Part shown: one piece after another, positions 52,715-63,451 of the stretch | Numbering within the stretch: position 1 is the first letter of the stretch | How the letters are laid out: every line of letters starts with the position of its first letter | Assembly (NCBI GenBank): GCA_947624195.1 | Contig: CANQJH010000003.1 | Span: forward strand, 7,369 to 71,368 | From: an uncultured Clostridia bacterium | GTDB taxonomy: Bacteria; Bacillota; Clostridia; TANB77; CAG-508 | Direction: 5' to 3' | Length of the DNA: 64,000 nt | Notes under the pieces: model-generated | Told to the model about the DNA's origin: nothing | The model's input: the letters and a program-made list of their open reading frames with translations, nothing else | Database searches by the model: none | Program-made: the position numbers and the translations under genes

Positions 52715-53623
52715 TTAAATACATTTTATCTTTTTATAATTTGAACATTCTACATTATTTTCTTTCAATTTTACTTTCAAATCTTGTAAAACTTTAAACT
52801 CTTTAACTCTATCATTATTTGAAAAAATAGTTTTATGTTTAACAAATTTCCAATAGAATCCCGGATGTGTCATAATTTGAATTACATCATTTTCTTTAAA
52901 TTTTTTCAACTGGTTCCATAAAATATCAGATCTTCTAAAATATCCATACATAGTTCCAATATATTTTATACTATCCTTTTTGCAATTCTTTACGCACATA
53001 TAATTATTTAAGTACATATCATACTTAAAAAAATAATCATAATTCTTTTTTAATACTTCATCATCAATTTTGTCTTCAGTAAATTTGTAAAATTCTTTAA
53101 AAAAATTATTGTTACTTATTAATCTTTTATCTAATAAGTCAAGATTTTCATATGGGATTCTTAAATGTATTTCGTGTTCTAATGATATTTTTTCGAATAA
53201 TTCTTCGATTTCTTTACTAAAAATATTACAATGATTATGACCATCGATATGTTCTGGAAAAAAATTATAATTACTATAAAATTTATCTAATTGGCATTTA
53301 ATTTCTTCGCCTATCTTGTTAATGTTAATTGTATTTTCAATTGCATTACGCCAAAATGAAAATTTGGTTTTCTTATAGTGATAACAATGATAGCAAATAT
53401 CATTTACTCTGTAATTTATTAAATTATCATCTGTTAAATTTATATGAATACCAATACTAACTTTTGTTCTCATTATTTTTATCATTAATTTTCTTAATAA
53501 TCCAATTTTATTAGTAACTACAACACTTACACTAGTAATGTAGCCTCTAATAACTCCTAAAAATATTCCAAAATCTCTATCTATATCAATTCCAAAGTCA
53601 TCTGCATTTATTATTACTTTCAT
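52715..53623 (-). CDS. ChbG/HpnK (YdjC) family carbohydrate deacetylase
   Basis: IINADDFG, GIHINLT, PEHIDGHNH, IMTHPG. Confidence 0.85.
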   Translation of the reverse strand: MKVIINADDFGIDIDRDFGIFLGVIRGYITSVSVVVTNKIGLLRKLMIKIMRTKVSIGIHINLTDDNLINYRVNDICYHCYHYKKTKFSFWRNAIENTININKIGEEIKCQLDKFYSNYNFFPEHIDGHNHCNIFSKEIEELFEKISLEHEIHLRIPYENLDLLDKRLISNNNFFKEFYKFTEDKIDDEVLKKNYDYFFKYDMYLNNYMCVKNCKKDSIKYIGTMYGYFRRSDILWNQLKKFKENDVIQIMTHPGFYWKFVKHKTIFSNNDRVKEFKVLQDLKVKLKENNVECSNYKKIKCI

Positions 53624-53649
53624 TTTTTCTCCTAAATTTTTTATTATAT

Positions 53650-53689
53650 AAATTTATAGGATACTAAAAGTATAGTATCCTATAAATTT
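53650..53689. terminator. Hairpin after IucA-like gene
   Basis: 17-bp inverted repeat AAATTTATAGGATACTA. Confidence 0.65.
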
Positions 53690-53703
53690 GCTAGATTTAT
53701 GTC

Positions 53704-60834: not shown

Positions 60835-61812
60835 TTAAAGTTTTTTTACATAAATAACTGGACAAACTAATTGTTCATTTTCTTTTTTCTTTCTGCTTAA
60901 TGCTGGACAACAGTCGTCACTTCTTGAATTAATTTTAATATCTTCAACAACTTTTTTTATGTTGATGAAGATTTTTTCTTTATTATCTTTTATGATATTT
61001 CCAATACAATATCTCTTATTTCGTAATAGTAAACCACATAAATACAAATCTCCATTAGCATCCATGTGTGGATCAGCAAATTTATTTATGTAATTATTTT
61101 CATATTTTAATATTGGACAATCAGTTGAACAACCTGACTCTTTTAATTCTGCGTCCTTTACTCTTGTATATTCATAACCAATTCTAAAATTAGATTTATT
61201 TATTTCATCAGCCATTTTATTAAAAATATCTGCACAGTTCATTTCATCAGTACATAACTCAATATTGTCTTTTGCTCTTCCCAAAGGAGTAATCATATAT
61301 ATCCTTAATGTTTTAGGTTTTATTTTTTCCTTTAATATCATTTTCATTAGATTACATATTTCATTTTTGTTAGTTTGTGAAACTAACATAGTCAATGTAA
61401 AGCTAATTTCTTTTAATTTTATGAGTACTTCAATAATTTTTTCTAAATAATTATTGTATTTATTATCGTCAATTCCTAATATATCTTGGGTATATAGACT
61501 AATACTAAATGTATCAGTTATTTCTTTTAATTCTTCTATCTTTTCATCGTTTAATAGTATTCCATTTGTTAGGAATCCAATTTTCAGTCCTTTATTTTTT
61601 GCATAATTCATATAATCAAACAGACCTTTGTTCATTAAAGGCTCTCCACCACTAAATGTTAGTTTCTTTATTCCTATATTATATAAATTGTCTATTGCTC
61701 GATATTTATCTTCGTTATTTAATTCGTTTTTTATTTCTTCACCACCACAAACAAAGCAATGTCTACATCTAAAATTACATTTATTTGTCACTAAAAATGT
61801 TACCTTTTCCAT
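60835..61812 (-). CDS. Radical SAM protein
   Basis: CNFRCRHC, SGGEPL, TNG, GDLYLC..IGNI, C-terminal Cys residues. Confidence 0.88.
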   Translation of the reverse strand: MEKVTFLVTNKCNFRCRHCFVCGGEEIKNELNNEDKYRAIDNLYNIGIKKLTFSGGEPLMNKGLFDYMNYAKNKGLKIGFLTNGILLNDEKIEELKEITDTFSISLYTQDILGIDDNKYNNYLEKIIEVLIKLKEISFTLTMLVSQTNKNEICNLMKMILKEKIKPKTLRIYMITPLGRAKDNIELCTDEMNCADIFNKMADEINKSNFRIGYEYTRVKDAELKESGCSTDCPILKYENNYINKFADPHMDANGDLYLCGLLLRNKRYCIGNIIKDNKEKIFINIKKVVEDIKINSRSDDCCPALSRKKKENEQLVCPVIYVKKL

Positions 61813-63325
61813 TTTCTGCCTCCTTATTTAATTCTGGAAAATAATAAAACAAATTATTATTACGTCGGTCATTGTTTATTTTATCCCTAATAAACATCCT
61901 TTCAAATATTTCTAGATAAATAACTTTCATAAAATAGTCTATTTCATAAAATTCATCATTAAATTTCTTTTTTTTATAATACTTACTATTTCGAGCGACT
62001 CTTTTTATATCATTCAAAGATATTTTCCCGATAAATAAAGTTTTTAAATCAGTTGCTCCACCTATTTTTTTTAAAATTTTTACTATTTCTGAAGGCAATG
62101 TTTTATGTATTATATTCTTGTGGTATGTTTTATTGCTATCACCTTTAATTACTATTCTTTTAGCTGTTTCAATAAATTTCCTTCTTAAATATGGATATTG
62201 AGTATTTATTCCATAATAGTTCATTAAAATTCCACTTTTTTTAAGAATTTTATATGAAGCCATTTCATATACATCCTTATAAGGCTTAATCGAAACCCCC
62301 TTAAATAATTGTGCATAATTTTTTAAATAATATTTTATTTTATCAATGTGCGAGCTTATTGGATGGTATAAATTATAATGTAATACTTGGTCAGCACAAT
62401 CTCCTAAAATCATATTATCTACATTATTATCTTTTATTAATTTTGCAAGTTCATATTGTAAAAATATTCCTGATTCATAGATTGCACCTTCCAATGCAAA
62501 TATTATTTCAGGATAATTTATTAAACTCTTATCATCAACAAAATTTGAATGAAAATCTAGATTTTTATAATACTTACTAATAAAATATGAGTTTGGAACT
62601 TCATTTCTACCTATTATTCCGCCAATAGAGAAAGCTTCTAGTTTATTATTATTTTTTCTTAAGTTATACACTAAAAAATTAGTATCATATCCTGATGAAA
62701 TTGTTACCCCTATGTTTTTGCATTTTGAACTATTGCATATTTCTTCCATTGTTTTAACATAAGAAACACTATTTACTTTTTTTATATTATATATATCCTT
62801 TACAAATATATTTCTTTTAATTTTGTACTTGGCATTATTTAAATTAATTTCTAAATACTTTTTCCCAGGAACTTTATGTATGAGGTTAACCAAAGTGTCT
62901 TTGTTCGTTATAAATCCTTTATCTAAAAACTTATTAACAGATTTTAAATTGATTTGCCAGTTAATATTCTTGTTTTTTATTATTTGTTTCAGTTCATTAG
63001 ATATTATTATTTCAGTTCTATCATCATAAAAATAAATATTATGATTGCTACCAAAGTAATCTTGAAAAACATAAAGTCTTTTTGTTCTCTTATCAATAAT
63101 TATTAATGAATATGTTCCATCTATATAATTAACAATTTTTTTCCCGTGTTTTAGGAATAATATATGTAGATTTGCTAGTTCTAAAAGATTTTTCTTAATA
63201 TCAAAAATTTTACCAATAGAAAATAATAATATATTTTCATCTTCTAATATATTTCCTAACACATTTAATTTTTCTATCTTTAATTCCTTTTGACATTTAA
63301 TTTTAAAATAAAATTGCTCTTTCAT
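61781..63325 (-). CDS. Asparagine-synthetase-like ATP-dependent amide ligase lacking the N-terminal Cys
   Basis: IDGTYS..D..QDYFG, ISSGYDT (SGGxDS-like), LGDCADQV, YPYL. Confidence 0.75.
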   Translation of the reverse strand: MKEQFYFKIKCQKELKIEKLNVLGNILEDENILLFSIGKIFDIKKNLLELANLHILFLKHGKKIVNYIDGTYSLIIIDKRTKRLYVFQDYFGSNHNIYFYDDRTEIIISNELKQIIKNKNINWQINLKSVNKFLDKGFITNKDTLVNLIHKVPGKKYLEINLNNAKYKIKRNIFVKDIYNIKKVNSVSYVKTMEEICNSSKCKNIGVTISSGYDTNFLVYNLRKNNNKLEAFSIGGIIGRNEVPNSYFISKYYKNLDFHSNFVDDKSLINYPEIIFALEGAIYESGIFLQYELAKLIKDNNVDNMILGDCADQVLHYNLYHPISSHIDKIKYYLKNYAQLFKGVSIKPYKDVYEMASYKILKKSGILMNYYGINTQYPYLRRKFIETAKRIVIKGDSNKTYHKNIIHKTLPSEIVKILKKIGGATDLKTLFIGKISLNDIKRVARNSKYYKKKKFNDEFYEIDYFMKVIYLEIFERMFIRDKINNDRRNNNLFYYFPELNKEAENGKGNIFSDK

Positions 63326-63422
63326 ATTTTACCTTTTATATAATTTTTTAATTAGTATAAGTAACTACAATTTCTCTTAAATACAGATTAATTATACCTT
63401 TTATCTCTATTATTTTATTTAC

Positions 63423-63451
63423 ATAATATCGCAATAGACTTAATATGTCAA
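63423..63451 (-). promoter_or_regulatory. SigA promoter of the biosynthetic operon
   Basis: TTGACA-17 nt-TATTAT. Confidence 0.65.

Follow-up and report, generated by a model that had tools for sequence, protein, structure and literature searches.

The DNA analysed here, a window of 64,000 nucleotides, is part of contig CANQJH010000003.1 (positions 7,369 to 71,368) of an uncultured Clostridia bacterium, whose metagenome-assembled genome is low in GC (about 27%), 1.43 Mb in size and 83% complete. Towards the end of the window, positions 52715-63325 are filled by ten open reading frames (ORFs), all on the minus strand. They encode an AsnB-like amide-forming enzyme, two radical S-adenosylmethionine (SAM) enzymes (rSAM1 and rSAM2), a HAD hydrolase, a UDP-N-acetylhexosamine (UDP-HexNAc) dehydrogenase, a 4-epimerase, a glycosyltransferase (GT), an S51 peptidase, a ligase with the fold of the nonribosomal peptide synthetase-independent siderophore (NIS) synthetases, and a de-N-acetylase of the YdjC family. 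An eleventh gene, for a type-2 methionyl-tRNA synthetase (MetRS), adjoins the YdjC gene (Table 1). An earlier annotation made from the letters alone, called here the sequence-only reading, had listed the first ten genes, and with Pfam and NCBIfam every one of them was recovered, both in place and in family type. The tight packing it had reported was likewise borne out: consecutive genes overlap or are separated by at most 28 bases, except for two larger gaps, one of 132 bases ahead of the NIS-like gene and one of 80 bases ahead of the YdjC gene. Its list ended one gene early, leaving out the MetRS, which tells more about the cassette than any other of its conserved members.

Table 1. Genes of the cluster and promoter-like sites in and around it (positions in the window).
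Feature	Position	Strand	Conservation	Basis
AsnB-like ATP-dependent amide-forming enzyme	61781..63325	-	accessory	Asn_synthase 36.9 bits; TIGR01536 E 7.7e-22
Radical SAM 1 (rSAM1)	60835..61812	-	accessory	CX3CX2C at residues 12-19; Cys-rich C-terminus
HAD hydrolase, NT5C (5'-nucleotidase)-like	60234..60821	-	accessory	25.4 bits, barely above cut-off
UDP-HexNAc 6-dehydrogenase, TviB/WbpO-like	58945..60237	-	core	TviB model 412 bits; subfamily TIGR03026 371 bits, cut-off 190
UDP-HexNAc(A) 4-epimerase, TviC/WbpP-like SDR	57977..58957	-	core	TviC model 294 bits; PF01370 196 bits
Radical SAM/SPASM 2 (rSAM2), signature enzyme	56872..57987	-	core	Pfam/NCBIfam family match
GT-B glycosyltransferase, PF13528 / MJ1255-like	55743..56843	-	core	PF13528 126.6 bits
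S51 serine peptidase	55063..55743	-	accessory	114 bits; GxSAG serine kept
Short (408 aa) NIS-synthetase-fold adenylating ligase	53704..54930	-	core	profile; AlphaFold/Foldseek
YdjC-family carbohydrate de-N-acetylase	52715..53623	-	core	95.4 bits
Type-2 MetRS, 533 aa, short form without C-terminal domain	51061..52662	+	core	TIGR00398
Promoter-like site TTGACA-17-TATTAT, upstream of first gene	63423..63451	-		11/12 matches
Promoter-like site TTGACA-17-TAAAAT with TG, in the 132-base gap before the ligase gene	55016..55044	-		as good as the first site
Promoter-like site TTGACT-17-TATAAT with TG, ahead of the MetRS gene	50923..50951	+		pattern match

Related loci were sought with two of the proteins. 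When 185,579 species genomes were scanned with a degenerate pattern for the ligase family, at least 50 loci in many phyla were found; only four of 50 (L009, L010, L011 and L014, in genomes G404, G401, G402 and G403, respectively) also hold the other cluster genes. A metagenome scan with rSAM2 added the complete loci L062 and L063, the fragments or variants L060, L061 and L064, and one unrelated match. Seven genes, those for the dehydrogenase, epimerase, rSAM2, GT, ligase, YdjC and MetRS, form a core that is shared by the window and by six other loci (L009, L010, L011, L014, L062 and L063), whose carriers belong to Clostridia and Bacilli. The other genes are more restricted. The AsnB-like and HAD genes were found only in the three Clostridia-type loci (window, L010 and L011), the HAD protein of the window being 76-81% identical to those of L010 and L011, and the S51 gene only in the window, L009 and L010. 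Only in the window is rSAM1 intact; a frameshifted, truncated remnant lies in L010, and the gene is missing from L011, L014, L062 and L063. The "double radical SAM" character given to the cluster by the sequence-only reading is therefore not a property of the system.

A MetRS gene was present in all seven loci whose YdjC end is in view, and the cassette was never seen without it. In all seven it is adjacent, in convergent orientation in the window and co-directionally in L010, L011, L014, L062 and L063; it starts 59-90 bases behind YdjC in four loci, and in L010 the two reading frames overlap. The best matches in the PDB are the MetRS of P. abyssi and the human cytoplasmic enzyme, that is, the archaeal/eukaryote-like type 2. 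The window protein contains HLGH, KISKS, four CxxC motifs, GNFVNR and PW, and among the seven cassette MetRS all keep HxGH, K(M/I)SKS and GNxxNR, six the anticodon PW, and each three or four CxxC zinc-knuckle motifs. Since the catalytic, zinc and anticodon motifs are kept and TIGR00398 (metG) is passed (477.7 bits, cut-off 336), the cassette MetRS is probably a working tRNA ligase. The Trp of AWPYAN, where E. coli has Leu13, was considered as a cassette-specific change of the methionine pocket and discarded, as Trp is found in all of the 120 best homologues, 106 of them with AWPY(A/S)N and 14 with variant motifs such as AWLYGN.

The host genome (G000) also encodes a canonical Gram-positive type-1 MetRS, on contig C24 (L002:948-2546; PRK12267, 782 bits), which is 28% identical to the cassette enzyme. 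The same combination, type 2 in the cassette and type 1 elsewhere, was found in G401, G402 and G403. Among 41 genomes of the order of the host, 31 had type 1 only, seven had type 2 only (in its long form), one 59%-complete genome had none, and both types occurred only in G000 and in G426, a genome of the same family. In the order of G403, a type-2 MetRS was present in 16 of 121 genomes, together with type 1 in eight and as the sole MetRS in the other eight. The five nearest holders among these Bacilli (71-74% identical) have neither rSAM2 nor the ligase, and the short type-2 MetRS of G426 is an orphan without cassette. Thus, the cassette implies the MetRS, but not the converse. T-boxes were found ahead of the type-1 MetRS gene of G403 and of the TyrRS gene next to L062, but at none of the cassette MetRS genes.

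The cassette MetRS do not form a single lineage. In a tree of 45 sequences, made of the eight locus sequences and every third of the listed homologues, they fell into three well-supported separate clades, namely window and L009; L010, L011 and the G426 orphan; and L014, L062 and L063. Across rSAM2, GT, ligase and YdjC, identity between the window and L010 goes from 84% (rSAM2) down to 66% (YdjC), whereas the MetRS are only 47% identical. Judged by these comparisons, one MetRS has been replaced by another without loss of the association, and in the lineage of the window the gene has also been inverted. The three clades and the mismatch in identity suggest that any type-2 MetRS will do, which fits a role in immunity.

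Some further observations on MetRS genes were made along the way. In G426 (L076:15109-19900), the orphan gene is followed by co-directional genes for a group II pyridoxal-phosphate-dependent decarboxylase and an aminotransferase, and a CRISPR-Cas locus lies upstream. Type-1 MetRS of this bacterial family (contig C24 of G000, L070, L072, L077, L078, L080) have HIGT or HLGT instead of HIGH, also where they are the only MetRS. HIGT in the contig-C24 enzyme was therefore rejected as a sign of decay, being a family trait seen in sole type-1 enzymes (G173, G279, G200). In another genome (G528:C21:13504-13812), an intact type-1 gene has as its neighbour a fragment of 103 residues that contains two in-frame stops and shows 53% identity to the C-terminal portion of the Bacilli type-2 MetRS, perhaps the remains of a type-2 copy.

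The signature enzyme of the cassette, rSAM2, is rare. At E<=1e-20, 52 homologues were found in 5.8 billion proteins, and 48 of these are at least 45% identical to it; 13 of the 52 (for example P0248-P0256) are fused to a class I SAM-methyltransferase domain. Relatives of rSAM2 begin at an ATG four codons downstream of the annotated start (M5), which is probably the true start. Its best PDB match is BlsE (7vob), a cytosylglucuronate decarboxylase (E 4.9e-20), over residues 45-201, the radical-SAM core only. On plasmids, matches of only 24-35% identity were detected, one of them in a Streptomyces aminosugar-type cluster and one annotated blsE. An rSAM2-methyltransferase fusion occurs in L061, a variant with another gene order, in which the fused gene and a thymidylate/deoxynucleoside-kinase-like gene are followed by a MetRS gene less than 700 bases from rSAM2; L061:1-3419 represents a second architecture of the system.

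For the ligase, Pfam gave a sub-threshold FhuF match only (19.1 bits, cut-off 25.2) and none to IucA_IucC (PF04183), which a few family members carry in precomputed data. A profile of 14 family members matched AsbB (E 1.8e-7) in an alignment that includes the ATP-binding and ExHxQN...D motifs. In addition, the AlphaFold model (predicted local distance difference test score 90.2) had AcsD, AsbB, IucC, IucA and DesD as best Foldseek matches (E about 1e-14, template-modelling score about 0.7), so that the designation of the gene as NIS-like was upheld by both fold and profile. The protein shares the fold of the NIS siderophore synthetases (IucA/IucC, AcsD, AsbB, DesD) and keeps the SxRT, K, R and ExHxQN...D motifs, but it is 408 residues long instead of about 580-620, some 170 N-terminal residues being missing; siderophore partner genes are absent, and its family is found in sugar- and nucleotide-handling cassettes. 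On plasmids, only IucA/IucC family proteins of 24-25% identity were found, on two Methylocystis plasmids.

Elsewhere, genes of the ligase family lie next to those for AIPR, type I restriction-modification, AbiEii, SIR2, ThsB-TIR, MazG, Ham1, NUDIX and nucleotide kinases, and further company includes HAD, PRK-like, zeta-like and guanylate kinases, histidine phosphatase and nucleoside phosphorylase. Several other compact cassettes are found among L012-L058 (for example L016:7633-12899, L028:2119-8881, L020:9318-13572 and L053:5048-9306). One type, present in 13-19 loci, combines the ligase with a beta-lactamase-fold protein and a protein of about 780 residues of no known family; another (8 loci) has HAD, a PRK-like kinase, a zeta-like kinase and a TIM barrel; others have NUDIX, histidine phosphatase, a 357-residue protein and a short YdjC, or guanylate kinase, SIR2 and Ham1. 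Defence or mobile genes often stand alongside, and none of these cassettes matches PADLOC. The 357-residue partner (c3) of other phyla was considered as a hidden glycosyltransferase and rejected, as BLASTP gave no similarity to the GT of the window.

The surroundings of the loci are unrelated. Flanks of six loci share no gene family (BLASTP, E<=1e-10); they contain housekeeping, restriction-modification, conjugation (TraG-like), sortase/pilin or tRNA genes, and several loci have mobile-element or tRNA genes alongside. Beyond the end of the window, about 1 kb upstream of the cluster (L082:997-4399, contig C3 of G000), lie genes for a TnpV fused to an Apea-like HEPN domain and for a large serine recombinase of 647 residues, which we take to be the gene pair of Tn4451-type mobilisable transposons. 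The cassette is also sparsely distributed: in a sample of the class, one of 399 scored genomes had rSAM2, namely the host genome (two more were unscorable), and in a sample of the order to which the Bacilli carrier G403 belongs, one of 301, namely G403 itself.

The sequence-only reading had taken the locus for a small-molecule pathway, to be abandoned should its relatives lie within capsule, teichuronic-acid or protein-glycosylation loci, and had noted that no flippase, polymerase, priming transferase or exporter is in view. Both points stood up to inspection. None of these four kinds of gene was found in or beside the cluster, and the flanks of the window, L010, L011, L014, L062 and L063 contain none of them and no capsule genes. 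As the gene order recurs in six other loci, amid unrelated flanks without assembly or export genes, the locus does not qualify as a capsule, teichuronic-acid or glycosylation locus. We read it as a self-contained pathway, and the rare, horizontally moving cassette as a biosynthetic unit for a small metabolite and not for a surface polymer.

What this metabolite might be can be sketched from the enzyme families. By strong homology, the TviB-like dehydrogenase and the TviC-like epimerase would convert UDP-GlcNAc to the uronic acids UDP-GlcNAcA and UDP-GalNAcA. The BlsE-like rSAM2 would then remodel the uronic acid, most simply by radical decarboxylation; the GT-B transferase would transfer the sugar to an acceptor that may be a nucleobase or nucleoside; YdjC would take off the N-acetyl group and free the amine; and the NIS-fold ligase would form, at the expense of ATP, an amide on the freed amine or on a carboxylate. 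The AsnB-like enzyme, the NT5C-like nucleotidase, the S51 amidase and rSAM1, where present, might tailor, feed, activate or deactivate the compound. As Met1 of the AsnB-like protein is not followed by Cys, it is not the glutamine-hydrolysing form; a PDB sequence search with it gave no match. A nucleoside or nucleotide part in the product is suggested by the NT5C-like or kinase-like genes in the variants and by the nucleotide-handling company of the ligase family. The sugar-nucleoside-like product of the sequence-only reading fits with these genes, and with BlsE as the best solved relative of rSAM2.

The constant second MetRS points to a target. A target-copy aminoacyl-tRNA synthetase (aaRS) within a pathway is among the most reliable indications of the mode of action of an antibiotic. 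What such immunity calls for, a second aaRS of the same specificity, was found both in the genome (G000, G401, G402 and G403) and in the cluster (seven of seven). On sequence and by analogy, we tentatively propose, as quite possible if short of probable, that the cassette makes a small metabolite derived from a UDP-HexNAc uronate, probably linked to a nucleoside or nucleotide, which would act on type-1 MetRS (MetRS1), plausibly as a mimic of methionyl-adenylate. The type-2 enzyme (MetRS2) would be the insensitive target copy of the producer and perhaps also a supplier of activated methionine, comparable to AbmK and AgnB2. AbmK, the SerRS of albomycin, is credited with immunity, substrate supply and regulation, AgnB2, the LeuRS of agrocin 84, with immunity (PMC8323819), and type-2 MetRS is described as insensitive to MetRS1-selective inhibitors and as transferable (PMC7916415).

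The closest known kind of locus is the aaRS-inhibitor cluster with target-copy immunity. Albomycin and agrocin 84 share with the cassette a second aaRS gene inside a compact pathway and a mobile element, and the agrocin 84 plasmid pAgK84 has analogous parts, namely LeuRS, radical SAM, SDRs, S66 peptidase, NUDIX, an AsnA-type amide former and methyltransferases. The cassette differs in that it starts from a UDP-HexNAc uronic acid, uses an NIS-fold ligase, has no exporter and resides in gut Firmicutes with small genomes. Homology to pAgK84 itself was looked for and dismissed: tblastn of 11 window proteins gave only a 21% radical-SAM match and a MetRS-LeuRS cross-match. In actinobacteria, the MetRS genes of agrocin-like (agn-like) clusters have been proposed as immunity genes that mark MetRS inhibitors, as stated in PMC8323819, and by that description these clusters belong to the same kind. 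No account of the cassette, or of a MetRS-linked cluster in Firmicutes, was found in open-access full text or in bioRxiv.

Other known pathways resemble parts of the cassette. The pathways to peptidyl hexuronic-acid nucleosides of the blasticidin S and gougerotin type follow a similar logic: a glycosyltransferase (BlsD) and a radical-SAM decarboxylase (BlsE) act in building on a uronic-acid sugar, an amide ligase takes part, and activation is by a peptidase. They differ from the cassette, which has no CMP hydrolase or aminotransferase, and in which the HexNAc uronate requires deacetylation and rSAM2 is not a member of the BlsE family; moreover, products of the blasticidin S/gougerotin type hit the ribosome and not MetRS. 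In mycothiol and bacillithiol synthesis and in HpnI/K/J, a GT and a deacetylase are followed by an amide ligase or a radical SAM; here, however, the transferase is of the GT-B PF13528 type instead of GT4 or GT2, and the sugar is first oxidised to the uronic acid. The aminocyclopentitol logic (HpnI/K/J or PtmJ/G/C) invoked by the sequence-only reading did not extend beyond the types of parts: YdjC scored 26.3 bits with HpnK (cut-off 232.6), and HpnJ and PtmC are B12-type enzymes, whereas neither radical SAM of the window has a Pfam B12-binding domain. Finally, TviB and TviC of the Vi antigen (WbpO/WbpP) are the best-scoring named models for the dehydrogenase and the epimerase, but both proteins stay below the equivalog cut-offs (412 against 592 bits and 294 against 760 bits) while passing the broader families TIGR03026 and PF01370, and the cassette has neither a TviD/TviE polymerase nor Vex export genes.

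Several points weigh against the MetRS-inhibitor proposal. Its product and target are inferred and its chemical steps all read from family membership, and for rSAM2 the family model of BlsE, TIGR04466, gave 83.2 bits against a cut-off of 400, the similarity being confined to the radical-SAM core. None of the seven loci encodes an exporter or an uptake-mimicking moiety, and such a lack would be unusual if the product were a secreted antibiotic. The ligase family lies elsewhere beside anti-phage and nucleotide-handling genes, pointing to other biology. G404, which carries L009 and may be incomplete, showed a type-2 MetRS only. The short type-2 MetRS is common in related Bacilli (the 16 of 121 genomes above), so that adjacency might reflect co-mobilisation, the cassette having settled next to a common gene or taken one up. 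In the window, MetRS gene and cluster are convergent and the former has a promoter-like site to itself, so that co-expression is not apparent in this locus. The contexts on which the count of seven rests are those of seven loci, with fragments and variants, about 45 other rSAM2 homologues lying outside it.

Four other explanations were weighed against the proposal. The cassette could be an envelope glycan module that puts a modified amino-uronic sugar on a wall polymer, a lipid or a surface protein, with the MetRS as a passenger. Mobile seroconversion or phage-receptor-masking operons modify surface glycans in this manner, TviB/TviC-type enzymes normally supply surface polysaccharides, and O-antigen loci are known to include AsnB-like enzymes for the amidation of uronic acids; such a module would also suit the variable, mobile-element-rich regions in which the cassette is found and would need no exporter. 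We nevertheless consider it unlikely, as there is no flippase, polymerase, priming transferase or membrane protein in or beside the seven loci, the adenylating ligase and the BlsE-like radical SAM are left without role, and the constant adjacency of a second MetRS from three clades is unexplained. Less probable still is that the MetRS is itself a biosynthetic enzyme of the MshC type, adding methionine to the freed sugar amine, so that the product is a physiological Met-aminosugar conjugate and not an inhibitor. The order MshA/MshB/MshC of mycothiol is mirrored by GT, YdjC and an aaRS-like enzyme, and the MetRS directly follows YdjC in five loci; that an aaRS paralogue can feed a pathway is seen from AbmK (PMC8323819). 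However, the cassette MetRS keep the anticodon-binding motifs and fall into three ordinary clades of a family whose members are the sole MetRS of some genomes; close cassettes have had their MetRS swapped (47% against 84% identity), which speaks against co-evolution with a special substrate; a dedicated amide ligase is already in the cassette; and the MshC model gives 39 bits with a cut-off of 485.

An intracellular anti-phage function, in which a modified nucleotide or nucleotide-sugar blocks phage replication as the products of prokaryotic viperins do, seems about as improbable as the MshC-type role. The defence genes (AIPR, type I restriction, AbiEii, SIR2, ThsB-TIR) and nucleotide enzymes beside the ligase family elsewhere, and the HEPN/TnpV and recombinase genes that adjoin the cluster, speak for it, and it would need no exporter. 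The only PADLOC matches of the two radical SAMs are to pVip models (89 bits for rSAM1 and 65 bits for rSAM2), but these scores are at the generic radical-SAM level, no other cassette protein was matched in the PADLOC scan, and rSAM1, the most viperin-like enzyme, stays far below the cut-off of the viperin family model NF038283 (75.6 against 180 bits) and is dispensable. The MetRS is also unexplained, since a resistant MetRS would serve the phage too. Lastly, SPASM enzymes and AsnB-like cyclases are common maturases of ribosomally synthesised and post-translationally modified peptides, and weak matches to sactipeptide and lasso models were seen, so that the radical-SAM/SPASM, the AsnB-like (lasso-cyclase-like) and the S51 proteins might mature a ribosomal peptide. 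This is very improbable: a conserved precursor ORF would find no space (the gene upstream of the dehydrogenase overlaps it in L062, and gaps in the core are below 100 bases or are overlaps), and the AsnB-like, S51 and rSAM1 genes are all accessory, the conserved partners being sugar enzymes.

If the proposal of a MetRS1-directed metabolite holds, a seven-gene cassette of a size that allows synthesis and expression would lead to a natural MetRS1 inhibitor. It would also give a first function to the 408-residue NIS-fold ligase family and could explain the scattered type-2 MetRS of gut Firmicutes. In PMC7916415, MetRS1 is presented as a validated Gram-positive drug target, and only synthetic inhibitors are cited. 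It is doubtful, though conceivable, that the compound would be the first natural-product type-1 MetRS inhibitor from gut Firmicutes, that is, a new class of aaRS poison made from UDP-GalNAcA by a BlsE-like radical SAM and a truncated NIS-type ligase, with a portable type-2 MetRS for immunity and possibly for methionine activation. The patchy spread of MetRS2 in small-genome Bacilli and Clostridia would in that case be a footprint of chemical warfare. Even if the inhibitor idea fails, there is a radical-SAM/uronic-acid cassette that is strictly linked to a second MetRS, and this link needs an explanation.

Regarding expression, the sequence-only reading had assigned one promoter to the cluster. 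The promoter-like site upstream of the first gene does exist, but a single promoter is not established, because an equally good site lies inside the cluster and such sites occur at chance density in this AT-rich DNA (117 found, against 108 +/- 12 in shuffled sequence). Control by a riboswitch (T-box, SAM or other), whether of the cluster or of the MetRS gene, was considered and set aside, as Rfam gave no match at E<=0.1 between 47000 and 64000. Upstream of the MetRS gene, about 800 bases (50252-51060) are without an ORF of at least 80 residues or an Rfam match, which is unusually long for this compact genome.

Two features away from the cluster were also recorded. An Mbeg1-like (lipase class 3) gene on the minus strand (48617-49775) is split into two overlapping ORFs of 164 and 257 residues, probably by a frameshift or an assembly error. 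On the same strand, 38991-46664 is occupied by two tandem pairs of genes for large secreted proteins, each pair consisting of a protein with SH3 repeats and a dockerin and of a cadherin-like protein, which suggests a cohesin-dockerin surface system in a genome of 1.4 Mb.

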